Source: a virus (taxonomy: Duplodnaviria > Heunggongvirae > Uroviricota > Caudoviricetes). From it: a stretch of 5,325 nt of DNA. Position numbers and translations under genes: made by a program. The stretch is taken from the IMG/VR virus record IMGVR_UViG_3300005715_000008; one strand, 5' to 3'. Below the pieces are notes generated by a model. The model saw only the letters and a list, made by a program, of their open reading frames with translations. It was not told the DNA's origin and made no database searches. Of the stretch, positions 1 to 5,202 are shown piece by piece (the first letter of the stretch is position 1; each line of letters starts with the position of its first letter).

Positions 1-1297
1 AACGCTTGAGCCGGAAGCGTTTTCAATTCCGCTCTACCGGAAAGCCTTCGAGGTTATCCGCAAGCAGGCGCGAAACAGAAACCTAATCGACGCGCTGATG
101 GTTGCCGAGGCGTGCGGAGAGGAGCATTTCACGTCAATCCTGATGACCAGCAAAAACTGCCCGAGTGCCGCAAACCTGAAGGGATATGCCGGAATGGTCG
201 CGGATAACTATCACCGCCGTCTGGTGCTGGAAATCATGGATGAAATGCGTGAACCAATTCAGAGCGGAACCATCGACGCATCGAGTCAGGCGATGGATGA
301 GCTTGTAAAGCGTCTTTCAGCCATCAGAAAGCCCCGTGACGAGGTTAAACCGGTACGGTTAGGGGAAATCATCACTGACTACACTGACACGCTTGACAGG
401 CGTCTGAGGAACGGAGAAGAGTCAGATACCCTGAAGACCGGAATCGAAGAACTTGATGCCATCACCGGAGGGATGAATGCGGAAGACCTGGTGATAATCG
501 CTGCTCGTCCTGGTATGGGGAAAACCGAACTGGCGCTGAAGATTGCCGAAGGCGCTGCAAGCCGCGTTATTCCTGGTTCTGACGTCCGGCGCGGGGTGTT
601 GATTTTCTCAATGGAAATGAGCGCATTGCAGATTGCAGAGCGAAGCATTGCCAACGCCGGGAGGATGTCGGTTAGTGTGCTGCGAAATCCTGCAGCGATG
701 GATGACGAAGGCTGGGCGCGCGTTGCTAACGGCATGAGTCAGCTTGCAGATTTGGATGTATGGGTAGTCGATGCCTCGCGGGTATCGGTCGAAGAAATAC
801 GCTCAATCGCAGAACGGCACAAACAGGAAAATCCAAACCTCTCACTCATCATGGTGGATTATCTTGGCCTGATTGAGAAGCCGAAAGCAGACCGCAACGA
901 CCTCGCAATTGCTCACATCTCCGGAAGCCTGAAGGCGATGGCGAAAGACCTGAAAACGCCTGTTATCTCCCTGAGTCAGCTTTCGCGCGATGTTGAGAAG
1001 CGACCAAACAAACGCCCGACAAACGCAGATTTGCGTGATTCAGGAAGCATTGAACAGGACGCAGACTCAATCATCATGCTCTATCGGGAAGCTGTATATG
1101 ACGAGAACAGTAGCGCCGCGCCATTTGCTGAAATCATCGTGACGAAAAACCGTTTTGGCTCGCTTGGTACGGTTTACCAGCGGTTCTGCAACGGACACTT
1201 TGTTGCATGTGACCAGGATGAAGCCAGACAGATTTGCACAGCATCAAATGCACCTGCTGCGCGTGGCAGACGATATGCACAAGGGGCTGACGTATGA
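1..1297 (+). CDS. Replicative DNA helicase, DnaB family (phage P22 gp12-like); 5'-truncated, reading frame continues from position 2 upstream of the first ATG at 98
   Basis: Open frame from window edge (frame 2) through stop TGA at 1295-1297. Translation contains a DnaB-type Walker A motif (AARPGMGKT) and overall DnaB-like organisation, with an N-terminal-domain-like segment upstream of the first Met. Position immediately upstream of the nin region matches the replication module of lambdoid phages. Confidence 0.85.
379..735 (-). other. Antisense ORF inside the helicase gene; judged non-coding
   Basis: Lies entirely within the strongly supported helicase CDS on the opposite strand; Ala/Ser/Arg-rich translation typical of a reverse-frame artefact of a GC-rich gene. 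Listed only to record the rejection. Confidence 0.1.
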
Positions 1298-1322
1298 CCA
1301 TCTACATCACTGAGCTAATAAC

Positions 1323-1354
1323 AGGCCTGCTGGTAATCGCAGGCCTTTTTATTT
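1323..1354 (+). terminator. Rho-independent terminator, tR2-like
   Basis: Perfect 8-bp inverted repeat AGGCCTGC (1323-1330) / GCAGGCCT (1339-1346) with an 8-nt loop, followed directly by TTTTTATTT. From memory this closely resembles the lambda tR2 hairpin upstream of ninB, but that is not verified. Confidence 0.75.
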
Positions 1355-1369
1355 GTGGGAGAGGGAAGT

Positions 1370-1696
1370 GTGGCTGACTGGCAAATTCCAATCATCATTC
1401 TTGCCGGAGCTTCGCTGGTTGCTGGCTTTATCCTGCTGAAAAAGCATAAAGACCGTGATCAAAAAGTCGAAGTTCTCTATGGGTATCCAGCGAACAGCAC
1501 AACATGGCTGACCATTTACCACTACCGAAAATCAGGACGCTGGGTATTCGAATGGGATGATCTGTTCGCTGAAAAGCGACCAAAGTCATGGGGAGACATC
1601 AGCGAATGCATGATGTTTGAAGAAAGAAAATCCGGCGCAACCCGAGAAGAGTTTAACGAAGCGTGGGCGCGATTAAGTGAGAGAGGGTATTTGTGA
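1370..1696 (+). CDS. Hypothetical small membrane protein (one N-terminal hydrophobic helix, about 108 aa from GTG 1370)
   Basis: ORF 1355-1696 in the track. GTG at 1370 is preceded by a purine-rich RBS GGGAGAGGGAAG (1358-1369), whereas GTG 1355 abuts the terminator T-tract with no RBS. Hydrophobic stretch IPIIILAGASLVAGFILL followed by KKHK (positive-inside). Stop TGA overlaps the next start (GTGA). Confidence 0.5.
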   Translation: MADWQIPIIILAGASLVAGFILLKKHKDRDQKVEVLYGYPANSTTWLTIYHYRKSGRWVFEWDDLFAEKRPKSWGDISECMMFEERKSGATREEFNEAWARLSERGYL

Positions 1697-1893
1697 GCAA
1701 GTACGAAAAATTAGATCAAAACATTCTTTCAATCCTGAGTGAAAGACCAACACCTGTTTTTGATATCTGGCTTAAATGGCGGAGCAATGGAATGTATATC
1801 GAAACCATCGATCGCCGTATGCAATACCTGAGAAAGAAAGGGCTTGTTGCAAATGTGCGTGGGAAGGGTTGGGTGAAAATTAACCTGTCATAA
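1693..1893 (+). CDS. Hypothetical 66-aa basic protein, possibly DNA-binding
   Basis: GTG start at 1693 overlapping the upstream stop (GTGA), GAGGG-type RBS about 7 nt upstream. Lys/Arg-rich C-terminal half (RRMQYLRKKGLVANVRGKGW) that by eye resembles a winged-helix recognition helix plus wing; weak, unverified. Confidence 0.45.
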   Translation: MSKYEKLDQNILSILSERPTPVFDIWLKWRSNGMYIETIDRRMQYLRKKGLVANVRGKGWVKINLS

Positions 1894-1904
1894 CGGGGAT
1901 TGAT

Positions 1905-2258
1905 ATGGACGAATCAAGAAAGTCTTTCGAGCAATGGGCATCAAAGCAATTCAATATCTCAGTAGAGGAAATTGTTAATAAGCGAATGCTGGGTGATTAC
2001 CTGCACAACCCAGACTTACATAATGCATGGCAAGCATGGATAGATAGCAGGGCGGCAATAGAAATTGAGCTACCAAAGCCTCATGCACATCTTATATGGA
2101 TTCAGGCTGGTCATGCGCCTGACGATTATTGGGATGATGTGGCGGTGTCATATAGCGAAAAGGATAAATGCTGCGACGGTTCAGACCGCTATCCTGTGCA
2201 TGCTGGATGGGAAATTGAAGAGGTTCTTCGCGCCGCTGGAATCAAAGTGAAGGAGTAA
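1905..2258 (+). CDS. Hypothetical 117-aa acidic protein, unknown function
   Basis: ATG at 1905 with GGGGA RBS 5-10 nt upstream; stop TAA at 2256-2258 immediately before the ninB RBS/ATG. No family recognised by eye; contains a CC pair and several His/Asp/Trp residues. Confidence 0.5.
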   Translation: MDESRKSFEQWASKQFNISVEEIVNKRMLGDYLHNPDLHNAWQAWIDSRAAIEIELPKPHAHLIWIQAGHAPDDYWDDVAVSYSEKDKCCDGSDRYPVHAGWEIEEVLRAAGIKVKE

Positions 2259-2260
2259 CG

Positions 2261-2671
2261 ATGAAGCAAACAATCTTCCTCCGAACTAAGCAACAACAGC
2301 AAGCCGCAATAAATGCCATCCTCGCAACACCACTCGATAAAGACAAGCCAATCACCATCCGCATTACTGACTACAAGCGCAACCTTGACCAGAACGCAAA
2401 ATTTCACGCGATGCTGTCGGATATCGCTCGTCAGGTTCAATGGTGCGGCAAATGGTTAAAACCGGAACAATGGAAGGTTTTGTTGATTAGCGGTCATGCA
2501 GTGGCAACAAACCTGGAAGCTGATGTTTTGCCCGGGCTTGAAGGCGAATACGTCAACATCCGCGAAAGCAGCGCGCAGATGAGTGTGAAGCGTATGGCAA
2601 GTCTGATTGAGTACACAACAGCGTGGGCTATTGGTCAGGGTGTCAGATTTACCGACAGGAGGTACGAATGA
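2261..2671 (+). CDS. ninB: NinB (Orf-family recombination mediator)
   Basis: 136-aa ORF with strong RBS AAGGAG 7 nt upstream of ATG 2261. Sequence pattern ([30 protein letters not shown]...) matches my recollection of lambda NinB/Orf; position in a nin operon. Confidence 0.85.
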
Positions 2672-4473: not shown

Positions 4474-4982
4474 GAGAACTAAACCTCACCAAAGAACAGC
4501 ATGAGTGGCTGAATGGCTGGCTTGAACTGTGGGGCGCATGGGTTTATTCAGGTCGTCTGGAAAAGCGCATGAGCAGCGTAATAGCGAAGTTCATGGAGAG
4601 CGTAGAGCCGGGAAGAGTTATGACAAGGCCAATGTGCAATGATGATGATGGAATGTTGATTTCTCAGGTCGTCGATTCCGTCATGTACATTGACAAGAAA
4701 GCCTTTGGCATCCTCCTCAGCTACTACGCTCATGGTTCATCTAAGCGAGCAATTGCATCCTACTATCACGCGGCTGCAAAGCCACGCAAGATGTGTGGAC
4801 GTGGTGGCGAGGGATGGAGAAAACCTTCACTGGCAACCTGTAGAAACGAAATTGACGACATCCTGAAAGCGTCATTATTTGTTTTATACCAGCCAATGCA
4901 AAATGCTTTCAAAATGCGTAAACGTGTTGAGAAAGTTAAGCATGTTGCTGTTAAAAGCCTTGACATGCAATTAGCCATTTAG
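4464..4982 (+). CDS. Q: Late-gene antitermination protein Q (non-lambda Q family, possibly Q21/Q82-like)
   Basis: 172-aa ORF directly after ninI (GTG 4464 overlapping the ninI stop region, RBS GGGAGAAGG upstream) and directly upstream of a consensus-like promoter plus terminator, which is the canonical position of Q. Sequence does not resemble lambda Q as I recall it; family assignment is from memory and synteny only. Confidence 0.6.
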
Positions 4983-4989
4983 CCATAAT
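4960..4989 (+). promoter_or_regulatory. Late promoter pR'-like (sigma70), probably including the Q-utilisation (qut) region
   Basis: -35 TTGACA (4960-4965), 18-bp spacer, -10 CATAAT (4984-4989); overlaps the Q stop codon (4980-4982). Predicted transcript start around 4996-4998. Confidence 0.55.
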
Positions 4990-4999
4990 TAGAGGGTAA

Positions 5000-5045
5000 G
5001 CTGCCGTTAGTGACTCTTAAGTTGCAACGGTGGCTTTTTTTTATT
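5000..5045 (+). terminator. Rho-independent terminator, tR'-like
   Basis: Imperfect stem g5000-t5008 paired with a5026-c5034 (9 pairs including two G-U), followed by TTTTTTTTATTT (5035-5046). Lies about 40-50 nt downstream of the predicted pR' start, the expected position of the terminator that Q overrides. Confidence 0.5.
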
Positions 5046-5046
5046 T

Positions 5047-5121
5047 GGGTCAGTCGTATAAAGGTCATTACGGAAGGCTGTTAACCTTCTTATCGTGGTT
5101 CGAGTCCACGCTGTCCCGCCA
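5047..5121 (+). tRNA. tRNA gene, anticodon GUU (Asn-like), 75 nt with encoded CCA
   Basis: Manual cloverleaf: acceptor 5047-5053 / 5111-5117 (one U-U mismatch at pair 4-69), U8, D-arm with A14 and G18G19, anticodon stem GAAGG/CCTTC with loop CTGTTAA (U33, anticodon GTT), 4-nt variable loop, T-arm CGTGG-TTCGAGT-CCACG, discriminator G, CCA 5119-5121. Confidence 0.6.
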
Positions 5122-5126
5122 AACAT

Positions 5127-5202
5127 GCTGGTTTAGCTCCAATGGTAGAGCAGTCGCCTTGTAAGCGAATGGGTAGCGGTTCAAGTCCGTTAACCAGCAC
5201 CA
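5127..5202 (+). tRNA. tRNA gene, anticodon UGU (Thr), 76 nt with encoded CCA
   Basis: Manual cloverleaf: acceptor GCTGGTT (5127-5133) / AACCAGC (5192-5198) perfectly paired, D-arm GCTC-CAATGGTA-GAGC, anticodon stem 5153-5157 / 5165-5169 (top pair non-Watson-Crick) with loop CTTGTAA (anticodon TGT), T-arm AGCGG-TTCAAGT-CCGTT, discriminator A, CCA 5200-5202. Confidence 0.7.

Follow-up and report, generated by a model that had tools for sequence, protein, structure and literature searches.

Three small genes between tR2 and ninB in a P22/Sf6-like lambdoid prophage: probable occupants of a variable nin-region accessory slot

What kind of unit, if any, is formed by three small open reading frames (ORFs) that lie between an intrinsic terminator and ninB in a lambdoid early operon? 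The question is raised by IMG/VR record IMGVR_UViG_3300005715_000008, a 5,325-nucleotide stretch of DNA from a virus of the Caudoviricetes (hereafter the window, by which we mean the whole stretch that was analysed, 5.3 kb). A reading made by a model from the letters alone (the sequence-only reading) had described ORF1, ORF2 and ORF3 as a three-gene cassette of unrecognised function, and had proposed it as a candidate superinfection-exclusion, abortive-infection or counter-defence module. Our analysis favours a different answer, to which we assign a probability of about 0.6: in a lambdoid prophage of the P22/Sf6-like kind, positions 1370-2258 form a variable slot for accessory genes in the nin region, occupied by three separate small genes and not by one system. 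The window comprises the right end of the early operon of such a prophage, in the order DnaB-type helicase (3' part), ninA-like ORF, ORF1, ORF2, ORF3, ninB, ninE, ninF, ninG, ninH, NinI phosphatase and Q. Its top matches over the whole length are E. coli prophages (at most 94% coverage, 97.9% identity), and further strong matches are found in phages HK446 and Sf6 and in Stx phages.

As judged from conservation, all three ORFs are real genes, given that homologues down to 33-60% identity keep invariant motifs; the sizes read from the letters (108, 66 and 117 amino acids) were exact, and the ORFs are tightly packed between terminator and ninB. They are not, however, unrecognised. ORF1 and ORF2 are genes 46 and 47 of phage Sf6 (AF547987), and ORF3 is a RefSeq protein of the family PF26207. 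Positions 1300-1922 of the window match Sf6 30322-30944 at 98.7% nucleotide identity across gene 45, tR2 and genes 46 and 47, with ORF3 standing in the position of gene 48. Sf6 differs in that the interior of its third gene is another allele and a fourth gene (49) precedes ninB; its genes are annotated without function (Sf6 genome paper: Casjens et al. 2004, cited in PMC8022706). Public annotation already covers both the genes and their order, as Sf6 genes 45-48, RefSeq hypothetical proteins, PHROGs and PF26207. Searches with ORF1, ORF2 and ORF3 against the local copy of Pfam, NCBIfam and PADLOC returned nothing significant, and neither did sequence and profile searches of the PDB. Literature on Sf6 nin genes, phiTE_015, tR2/ninB mosaicism and accessory-gene screens yielded no functional data for these families.

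The content of the interval between tR2 and ninB varies widely among related phages. Lambda has no gene there, HK620 has approximately 200 bp with no annotated gene, mEp235 has two genes, phiv205-1 three and Sf6 four; Oslo has only a gene of the gene-46 type, and E. coli prophages carry other sets, the third gene of E. coli N9 being annotated as a 'phiTE_015 family protein'. A presence/absence polymorphism between conserved tR2 and ninB had been suggested for this locus, and with an interval that holds from 0 to 4 genes between conserved ends, this is what is observed. On the left, tR2 (annotated as such in the Sf6 and HK620 records; RNA fold of -16.1 kcal/mol, z = -2.35) lies within a segment running from the ATG at 1294 to 1369, hairpin and ribosome-binding site (RBS) GGGAGAGGGAAGT included, over which lambda and Sf6 differ by single bases only. 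Past 1369, lambda proceeds to the ATG of ninB, while the window and Sf6 proceed to a GTG and ORF1, and the sequence-only reading was therefore right about the lambda tR2/ninB junction. The same reading had also placed the three genes in the position equivalent to that of ren. In lambda, ren (40280-40570) is upstream of tR2 and ninB (40644) directly follows tR2, and the three ORFs therefore occupy the tR2/ninA-ninB slot, not the ren slot. Lambda ren is, like the three ORFs, a small non-essential gene between the replication genes and ninB; besides its place upstream of tR2, it differs in sequence, with a best two-sequence comparison against the three ORFs of E = 0.05 over 21 residues. A Ren-like protein among the ORFs was accordingly rejected, for want of significant similarity and for lying on the wrong side of tR2.

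A second boundary is found inside the slot. When the joint of ORF2 and ORF3 is aligned, the window has a 33-nucleotide sequence, TAACGGGGATTGATATGGACGAATCAAGAAAG, in common with Sf6, E. coli F5 and E. coli 23AR1217; to its left the window tracks Sf6, and to its right it tracks F5. As the window switches from Sf6 to F5 at this point, it is a recombinant joined there, and combines a left half of Sf6 type, with genes 46 and 47, and an allele of the phiTE_015 family found elsewhere behind a DUF7301 gene. The window's own ORF2/ORF3 joint was sought by exact match in three large collections (genome, viral and metagenome) and was absent from all of them. A third boundary, at the end of ORF3, is kept in third-slot alleles with different interiors. 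The slot is delimited by short conserved sequences (tR2 with its RBS; the 33-nucleotide RBS/start segment; the last approximately 30 nucleotides of ORF3 with the ninB RBS) at which alternative genes are exchanged. At the level of aligned sequence, exchange at boundaries (a mosaic mechanism) is demonstrated for this slot, and its mosaic behaviour is of the classical kind. The short conserved linkers serving as module break-points match the lambdoid 'boundary sequences' (the bsq features of Sf6; PMC8022706), ATGA and GTGA overlaps being typical of nin genes; we find no respect in which the window differs from such mosaics, of which it is a textbook example. The positions of these features are collected in Table 1.

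Table 1. Positions of the slot genes, their boundaries and their flanking genes in the window
Feature	Position	Strand	Remarks
DnaB-type replicative helicase gene, 3' part	1..1297	+	P22 gene 12 / HK620 P type; truncated by window start
Helicase ORF	98..1297	+	RefSeq calls matching E. coli loci 'replicative DNA helicase'
ninA-like micro-ORF	1294..1377	+	27 amino acids; ATGA overlap with helicase stop; TGA overlaps ORF1 start; tR2 hairpin inside
tR2 intrinsic terminator	1323..1354	+	Stem 1323-1346 (8 pairs, 6 G-C), then T-run to 1354; identical in lambda and Sf6
RBS GGGAGAGGGAAGT, left mosaic boundary	1357..1369	+	Last stretch common to lambda; Sf6 'bsq6 boundary sequence' annotated over it
ORF1	1355/1370..1696	+	108 amino acids from GTG at 1370; 113 from 1355
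ORF2	1693..1893	+	66 amino acids; GTG start; GTGA overlap with ORF1 stop
33-nucleotide boundary sequence TAACGGGGATTGATATGGACGAATCAAGAAAG	1891..1923	+	ORF2 stop, RBS, first 6 ORF3 codons
ORF3	1905..2258	+	117 amino acids; Pfam PF26207 Phage_phiTE_015 / PHROG 343
Right boundary	2229..2262	+	Last ORF3 codons (AGIKVKE*), ninB RBS and ATG
ninB (Orf-family recombination mediator)	2261..2671	+	Pfam NinB, E = 1.7e-54; conserved right flank

If the three genes formed one system, they would be expected to travel together, and they do not. Among 5426 complete E. coli genomes, 1978 have matches to pieces of the junction; in the same set ORF1 is found in 108, ORF1 together with ORF2 in 63, ORF1 without ORF2 in about 45 and the DNA of ORF3 in 1. 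The exact ORF3 protein is preceded, in the contigs shown, by genes for a 67-residue protein, a 60-residue protein or a DUF7301 protein, and never by ORF1 or ORF2. Homologues of ORF2 in Enterobacter prophages have other upstream genes and neighbours, and the ORF1 homologue P0142 likewise has different neighbours. When neighbours were compared in eight related loci or phage records, none resembled ORF1 or ORF2, and phiTE_015-type genes resembling ORF3 were the only matches to a partner family; co-travel of ORF1 with ORF2 among distant relatives was tested as well and does not hold. The description of the locus as a single cassette consequently fails, both because each gene assorts on its own and because the window has arisen by recombination.

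The arrangement of signals bears on when the genes are expressed. The frames are joined almost without interruption: the helicase TGA overlaps the ATG of the ninA-like ORF, the TGA of the latter (1375-1377) overlaps the GTG of ORF1 (1370), and the TGA of ORF1 overlaps the GTG of ORF2 (1693), with gaps of 11 nucleotides between ORF2 and ORF3 and 2 nucleotides between ORF3 and ninB. Tight packing with frame overlaps of this kind is characteristic of nin regions (PMC8022706). A purine-rich, RBS-like stretch lies a few bases 5' of each ORF start, as read by eye and unscored by any tool. A sigma-70 consensus scan of 1100-2400 gave 0 promoter-like sites, against a mean of 1.5 in shuffled sequences, and with it no moron-type promoter of the three genes' own; tR2, upstream of all three, is the only strong terminator found. 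The genes thus sit behind tR2 in a chain of overlapping or abutting frames that runs from the helicase to ninB, and from this we infer that they would be transcribed from pR only after antitermination by N. On the timing deduced from these signals, they would be non-essential delayed-early genes, silent in the lysogen, each probably acting alone during lytic growth. Such a placement speaks against a module that serves the lysogen. The AT-rich stretch to which the sequence-only reading had drawn attention is a real dip (windowed G+C of 0.415 over 1600-2100 against 0.47-0.56 in the flanks) but a small one relative to other nin genes: by gene, G+C is 0.474 in ORF1, 0.408 in ORF2 (the lowest), 0.455 in ORF3, 0.531 in the helicase and 0.45-0.50 in the remaining nin genes, and the three-gene stretch as a whole stands at 0.452, with the other nin genes together at 0.475.

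ORF1 begins at the GTG at 1370, the start annotated in Sf6 and matched by PHROG 5903 over its full length (E = 8.3e-76; residues 6-113 on profile positions 1-108 of 108), and shares 99% amino acid identity with the product of Sf6 gene 46. The GTG follows GGGAGAGGGAAGT and the protein has an N-terminal membrane helix, in agreement with the earlier description of an RBS that precedes a GTG-start membrane protein. The helix (residues 5-27) is followed by a conserved beta3-alpha domain of approximately 75 residues, with 20 invariant positions, the motif YGYP..TWLTIYH.R..W.FEWDDLF..RP, and an AlphaFold core of three to four strands and a C-terminal helix modelled at a predicted local distance difference test score (pLDDT) of 84-97. 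Among 26 homologues, 16 have a hydrophobic N-terminal segment with a mostly positive C-flank; in most the N-flank is neutral or acidic and the basic flank lies past the helix, which places the conserved domain in the cytoplasm, and a few have only a short hydrophobic N-terminus and no full membrane helix. It is reasonable to suppose that ORF1 is a small cytoplasmic beta3-alpha domain anchored at the inner membrane by its N-terminal helix, N-out/C-in, whose most likely action would be to bind and modulate a protein of the host or of the phage; the role of membrane-tethered cytoplasmic binder is an educated guess. A Foldseek search of BFVD with the ORF1 model returned nothing but its own homologues in Goslar and IME207, and a profile search of 1.84 billion representatives gave 38 clusters of small stand-alone proteins with no informative fusions, apart from two longer multi-stretch matches (3904 and 380 residues, E about 1e-5) that we take to be spurious.

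Several exclusion proteins, for example T4 Imm and Sp, are membrane-anchored. By functional analogy only, ORF1 would resemble Imm and Sp in its small size, its N-terminal membrane helix and its early lytic expression, and would differ from them in the predicted cytoplasmic location of its conserved domain and in that some of its homologues have no full membrane helix. Two observations concern the start of the gene. The ninA-like micro-ORF, which is hydrophobic and translationally coupled to the helicase, has the sequence of Sf6 gene 45 ('similar to phage 21 NinA') and HK620 ninA, and lambda has the same frame, unannotated, between ren and ninB. In E. coli N9 (locus L004, 1495-1896, against window 1294-1696) a 1-base deletion in a TTTG(T/G)GGGAG run fuses the ninA-like ORF to ORF1, giving a product of 133 residues with two hydrophobic segments, a form also present in several database clusters (P0123-P0134). 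Inside ORF1, at 1414-1426, there is a second terminator-like match with a 5-pair stem, taken as chance because the number of such matches equals the expectation from shuffled sequences.

ORF2 matches PHROG 7185 over its full length (E = 8e-34; residues 1-66 on profile positions 1-79 of 79) and is 97% identical in amino acid sequence to the product of Sf6 gene 47. Its relatives are 63-83 residues long, with invariant D40, R42, Q44, L46, K48, G59 and W60. The segment IDRRMQYLRKKGLVANVRGKGWVKI resembles a recognition helix and wing, and sub-threshold winged-helix matches were obtained with HTH_Crp_2 (E = 0.069), PHROG 2440 'transcriptional regulator' (E = 0.008) and IscR (E = 0.017); in the PDB, IscR and Rrf2 chains were reached at E = 0.3-1.9, below significance, and profile searches with ORF2 gave winged-helix support no better than the single-sequence matches. 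A small winged-helix protein is therefore plausible, most likely one that binds nucleic acid, the latter function being an educated guess. The possibility that ORF2 is a paralogue of neighbouring MarR-like genes was considered and discarded (hhalign probability 0.15%).

ORF3 matches PHROG 343 (E = 4.9e-19). At the DNA level E. coli F5 has a gene 100% identical to it, and the identical RefSeq protein, which is indexed in 692 blocks of a large assembly collection, carries a precomputed, unmarked match to PF26207 (E <= 1e-5) in six contigs, as do close homologues; membership is given by this precomputed match, as the local copy of Pfam has no PF26207 model. The NCBIfam name of the family is 'phiTE_015 family protein', the name given to the third gene of the slot in E. 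coli N9, and ORF3 differs from many members by an extra C-terminal domain of 62 residues. With the product of Sf6 gene 48, in the same position, it shares 36% amino acid identity, the N-terminal motif and the last residues being common to both. In the predicted structure of ORF3 the N-domain is helical (pLDDT 80-93), and the C-domain is modelled with less confidence (pLDDT 57-75). Conservation is high in residues 1-11 and 42-54 (motifs SRK.FE.W and W.AW.ASRAAI), while between these Trp-containing helices residues 12-41 (window 1938-2027) are only 3-17% identical; the C-terminal domain is 68-98% conserved, and in proteins P0004-P0006 it is 97-98% identical despite divergent residues 12-41. This hypervariability could reflect diversifying selection or repeated exchange of alleles. 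H60, H62, C89 and C90 are invariant across 32 homologues (window 2082-2174), which suggests a metal site in a portable C-domain, possibly of the His2Cys2 type.

Klebsiella proteins that match Pfam Ead_Ea22 have a C-domain 77% identical to the one in ORF3, and some of them also have the ORF3-like N-motif FE.W...W.AW. Lambda Ea22 is, by analogy, the nearest studied counterpart of ORF3. It is an early protein with a pro-lysogenic effect of unknown mechanism and with variable, exchangeable C-domains (PMC10834534), and together with P22 EaD (PF13935, exo-xis region) it has in common with ORF3 a modular build of N-module and variable C-domain. ORF3 differs in having no coiled coil and no match to the PF13935 Ead_Ea22 model at E <= 0.1, and in belonging to the pR operon and not to the pL exo-xis region; against lambda Ea22 itself the hhalign probability is 8%. 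The last 16 residues of lambda Ea22, EYLHMMSDAGIRIKGE (locus L017, 551-1096), resemble the C-terminus of the ORF3 family, EIEEMLRAAGIKVKGE, a likeness that may reflect a shared terminal strand or chance. ORF3 may thus be a short relative of modular Ead/Ea22-type early proteins, its helical N-module being hypervariable and its C-domain conserved and possibly metal-binding, an assignment that we offer as an educated guess; by analogy with Ea22, it may tune the developmental course or host responses.

The families are not confined to lambdoid prophages. Relatives of ORF1 occur in two Escherichia phages, KookSpook (112 kb) and Goslar (237 kb), and in Shuimuvirus IME207, where primase/helicase and helicase genes adjoin; in metagenomic phages (L005, L006, L010-L012) they lie directly downstream of an 877-residue family-A DNA polymerase (DNA polymerase A). 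These last phages also encode Lar-like, NinX-like and DUF8224 genes. Relatives of ORF2 are found in Salmonella, Klebsiella, Escherichia and Enterobacter phages of 44-60 kb, often beside ParB-like nuclease or sliding-clamp genes, and in Mulock and CobraSix they adjoin excisionase and integrase genes. The non-lambdoid phages with homologues were isolated mostly from sewage. The occurrence of the ORF1 and ORF2 families outside lambdoid prophages fits functions that serve a replicating phage and argues against an exclusion module that protects the lysogen.

Several points weigh against a slot of three separate lytic genes. ORF1 and ORF2 are linked, with a GTGA overlap, in the 63 E. coli genomes, and may be a functional pair within that lineage. 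The promoter scan used a simple consensus, which a weak or non-sigma-70 promoter could escape. Mulock and CobraSix carry integrase, and not all of the non-lambdoid carriers need be strictly virulent. Finally, the winged-helix assignment of ORF2 derives from sub-threshold matches only (E = 0.008-0.3).

Of the alternatives, that which survives best holds that one or more of the genes encode counter-defence proteins directed against host defences early in lytic growth, the hypervariable N-terminal segment of ORF3 tracking a variable host target. For a single gene this is compatible with the accessory-slot reading, and it agrees with the small size and fast turnover of the genes, their location in a hotspot (phage 'accessory regions' being reportedly enriched in such functions; bioRxiv 10.1101/2023.04.06.535777), the spread of their families over many kinds of phage, and the contrast in ORF3 between residues 12-41 and the nearly identical C-domains of P0004-P0006. 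On the other side, there is no sequence or fold similarity to any solved protein, solved anti-defence proteins included, ORF1 and ORF3 having no counterpart among the solved structures; no experimental report was found in the literature, and the hypervariability may merely reflect recombination of old alleles at conserved flanks, as at gene boundaries. We consider counter-defence unlikely; individual genes may have such a role or one in host manipulation, but nothing in the data directly speaks for it.

The neighbourhoods described above invite another proposal, namely that the genes are auxiliary factors of DNA replication or recombination, in the manner of NinB and NinG, with ORF2 binding DNA and ORF1 tethering or regulating a replication protein at the membrane. 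Relatives of ORF1 adjoin the DnaB-type helicase in the window, a lambda-P-type protein and a 117-residue gene elsewhere, DNA polymerase A, and the primase/helicase of IME207; the ParB-like nuclease and sliding-clamp neighbours of ORF2 relatives point the same way. Adjacency may, however, reflect a shared position in early operons alone, and it is not uniform: a Pantoea prophage has its ORF1 relative in a run with a LexA-DNA-binding-domain protein and an integrase, and the excisionase/integrase neighbours in Mulock and CobraSix are of the same sort. Moreover, the slot is empty in lambda, and nothing in it is therefore needed for replication. The proposal is, in our estimation, improbable.

A more ambitious combination can be drawn from the same data, and we regard it as distinctly improbable. 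It would make the ORF3 family modular early effectors in which the His2Cys2 C-domain (possibly zinc-binding) is the active part and residues 12-41 are a helix-loop-helix cassette that sets specificity, under diversifying selection against immune or regulatory proteins that vary among hosts; independently of this, in the ORF1 family a new fold, tethered to the membrane and directed at a conserved host factor, would be used by temperate, 112-kb and 237-kb phages alike.

Least credible is the idea from which the question arose, that the three genes are one undescribed superinfection-exclusion or abortive-infection module that benefits the lysogen, with the membrane protein ORF1 as effector or sensor: the membrane anchor of ORF1, the polymorphic slot usual for accessory genes, the somewhat low G+C and the overlap and co-occurrence of ORF1 and ORF2 in 63 genomes are consistent with it, and against it stand the position behind tR2 with no promoter-like site in 1100-2400, the absence of a match in PADLOC-DB 2.0 (none for ORF1 and ORF3, and for ORF2 nothing better than E = 0.03, with CARF models in their winged-helix part), the independent assortment of the genes in a recombinant window, the homologues in mostly sewage-isolated non-lambdoid phages, often beside replication genes, the predicted cytoplasmic domain of ORF1 with homologues that have no full membrane helix, and the lack of similarity to lambda Ren.

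With the accessory-slot reading preferred, we see no sign of a new kind of system. As a case of lambdoid phages exchanging small early genes at short conserved linkers the locus is clean and well bounded, and beyond this it adds little but bookkeeping; the only mildly unusual points are the hypervariability within ORF3 and the wide range of phages in which the ORF1 fold occurs. Nonetheless, PHROG 5903, PHROG 7185 and PF26207 with its HxH...CC C-domain are compact, conserved, uncharacterised families and as such are candidates for accessory-gene screens. Should any of them prove to be an anti-defence protein or developmental modulator, their broad distribution would make the result general.

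Some further observations concern other parts of this phage type and of the window. Known defence and anti-defence families are present at other hotspots of the same phage type, as a BstA_C-domain gene upstream of the repressor in a related prophage (L024, 1-424) and a Tad2-like gene after the lysis genes (L026, 10208-10354). At and beyond the end of Q, the window contains a late-promoter-like site followed by two tRNA genes. The former is strong and lies at the end of Q (4960-4989; TTGACA-18-CATAAT, 11/12); directly after it, at 5001-5045, a G+C-rich hairpin and T-run can be read by eye, for which the terminator scan made no call. The tRNA genes are tRNA-Asn (GTT) at 5047-5121 and tRNA-Thr (TGT) at 5127-5202, and the same pair is present in the annotation of E. 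coli 23AR1217 and is given for Sf6 in the phage L paper.

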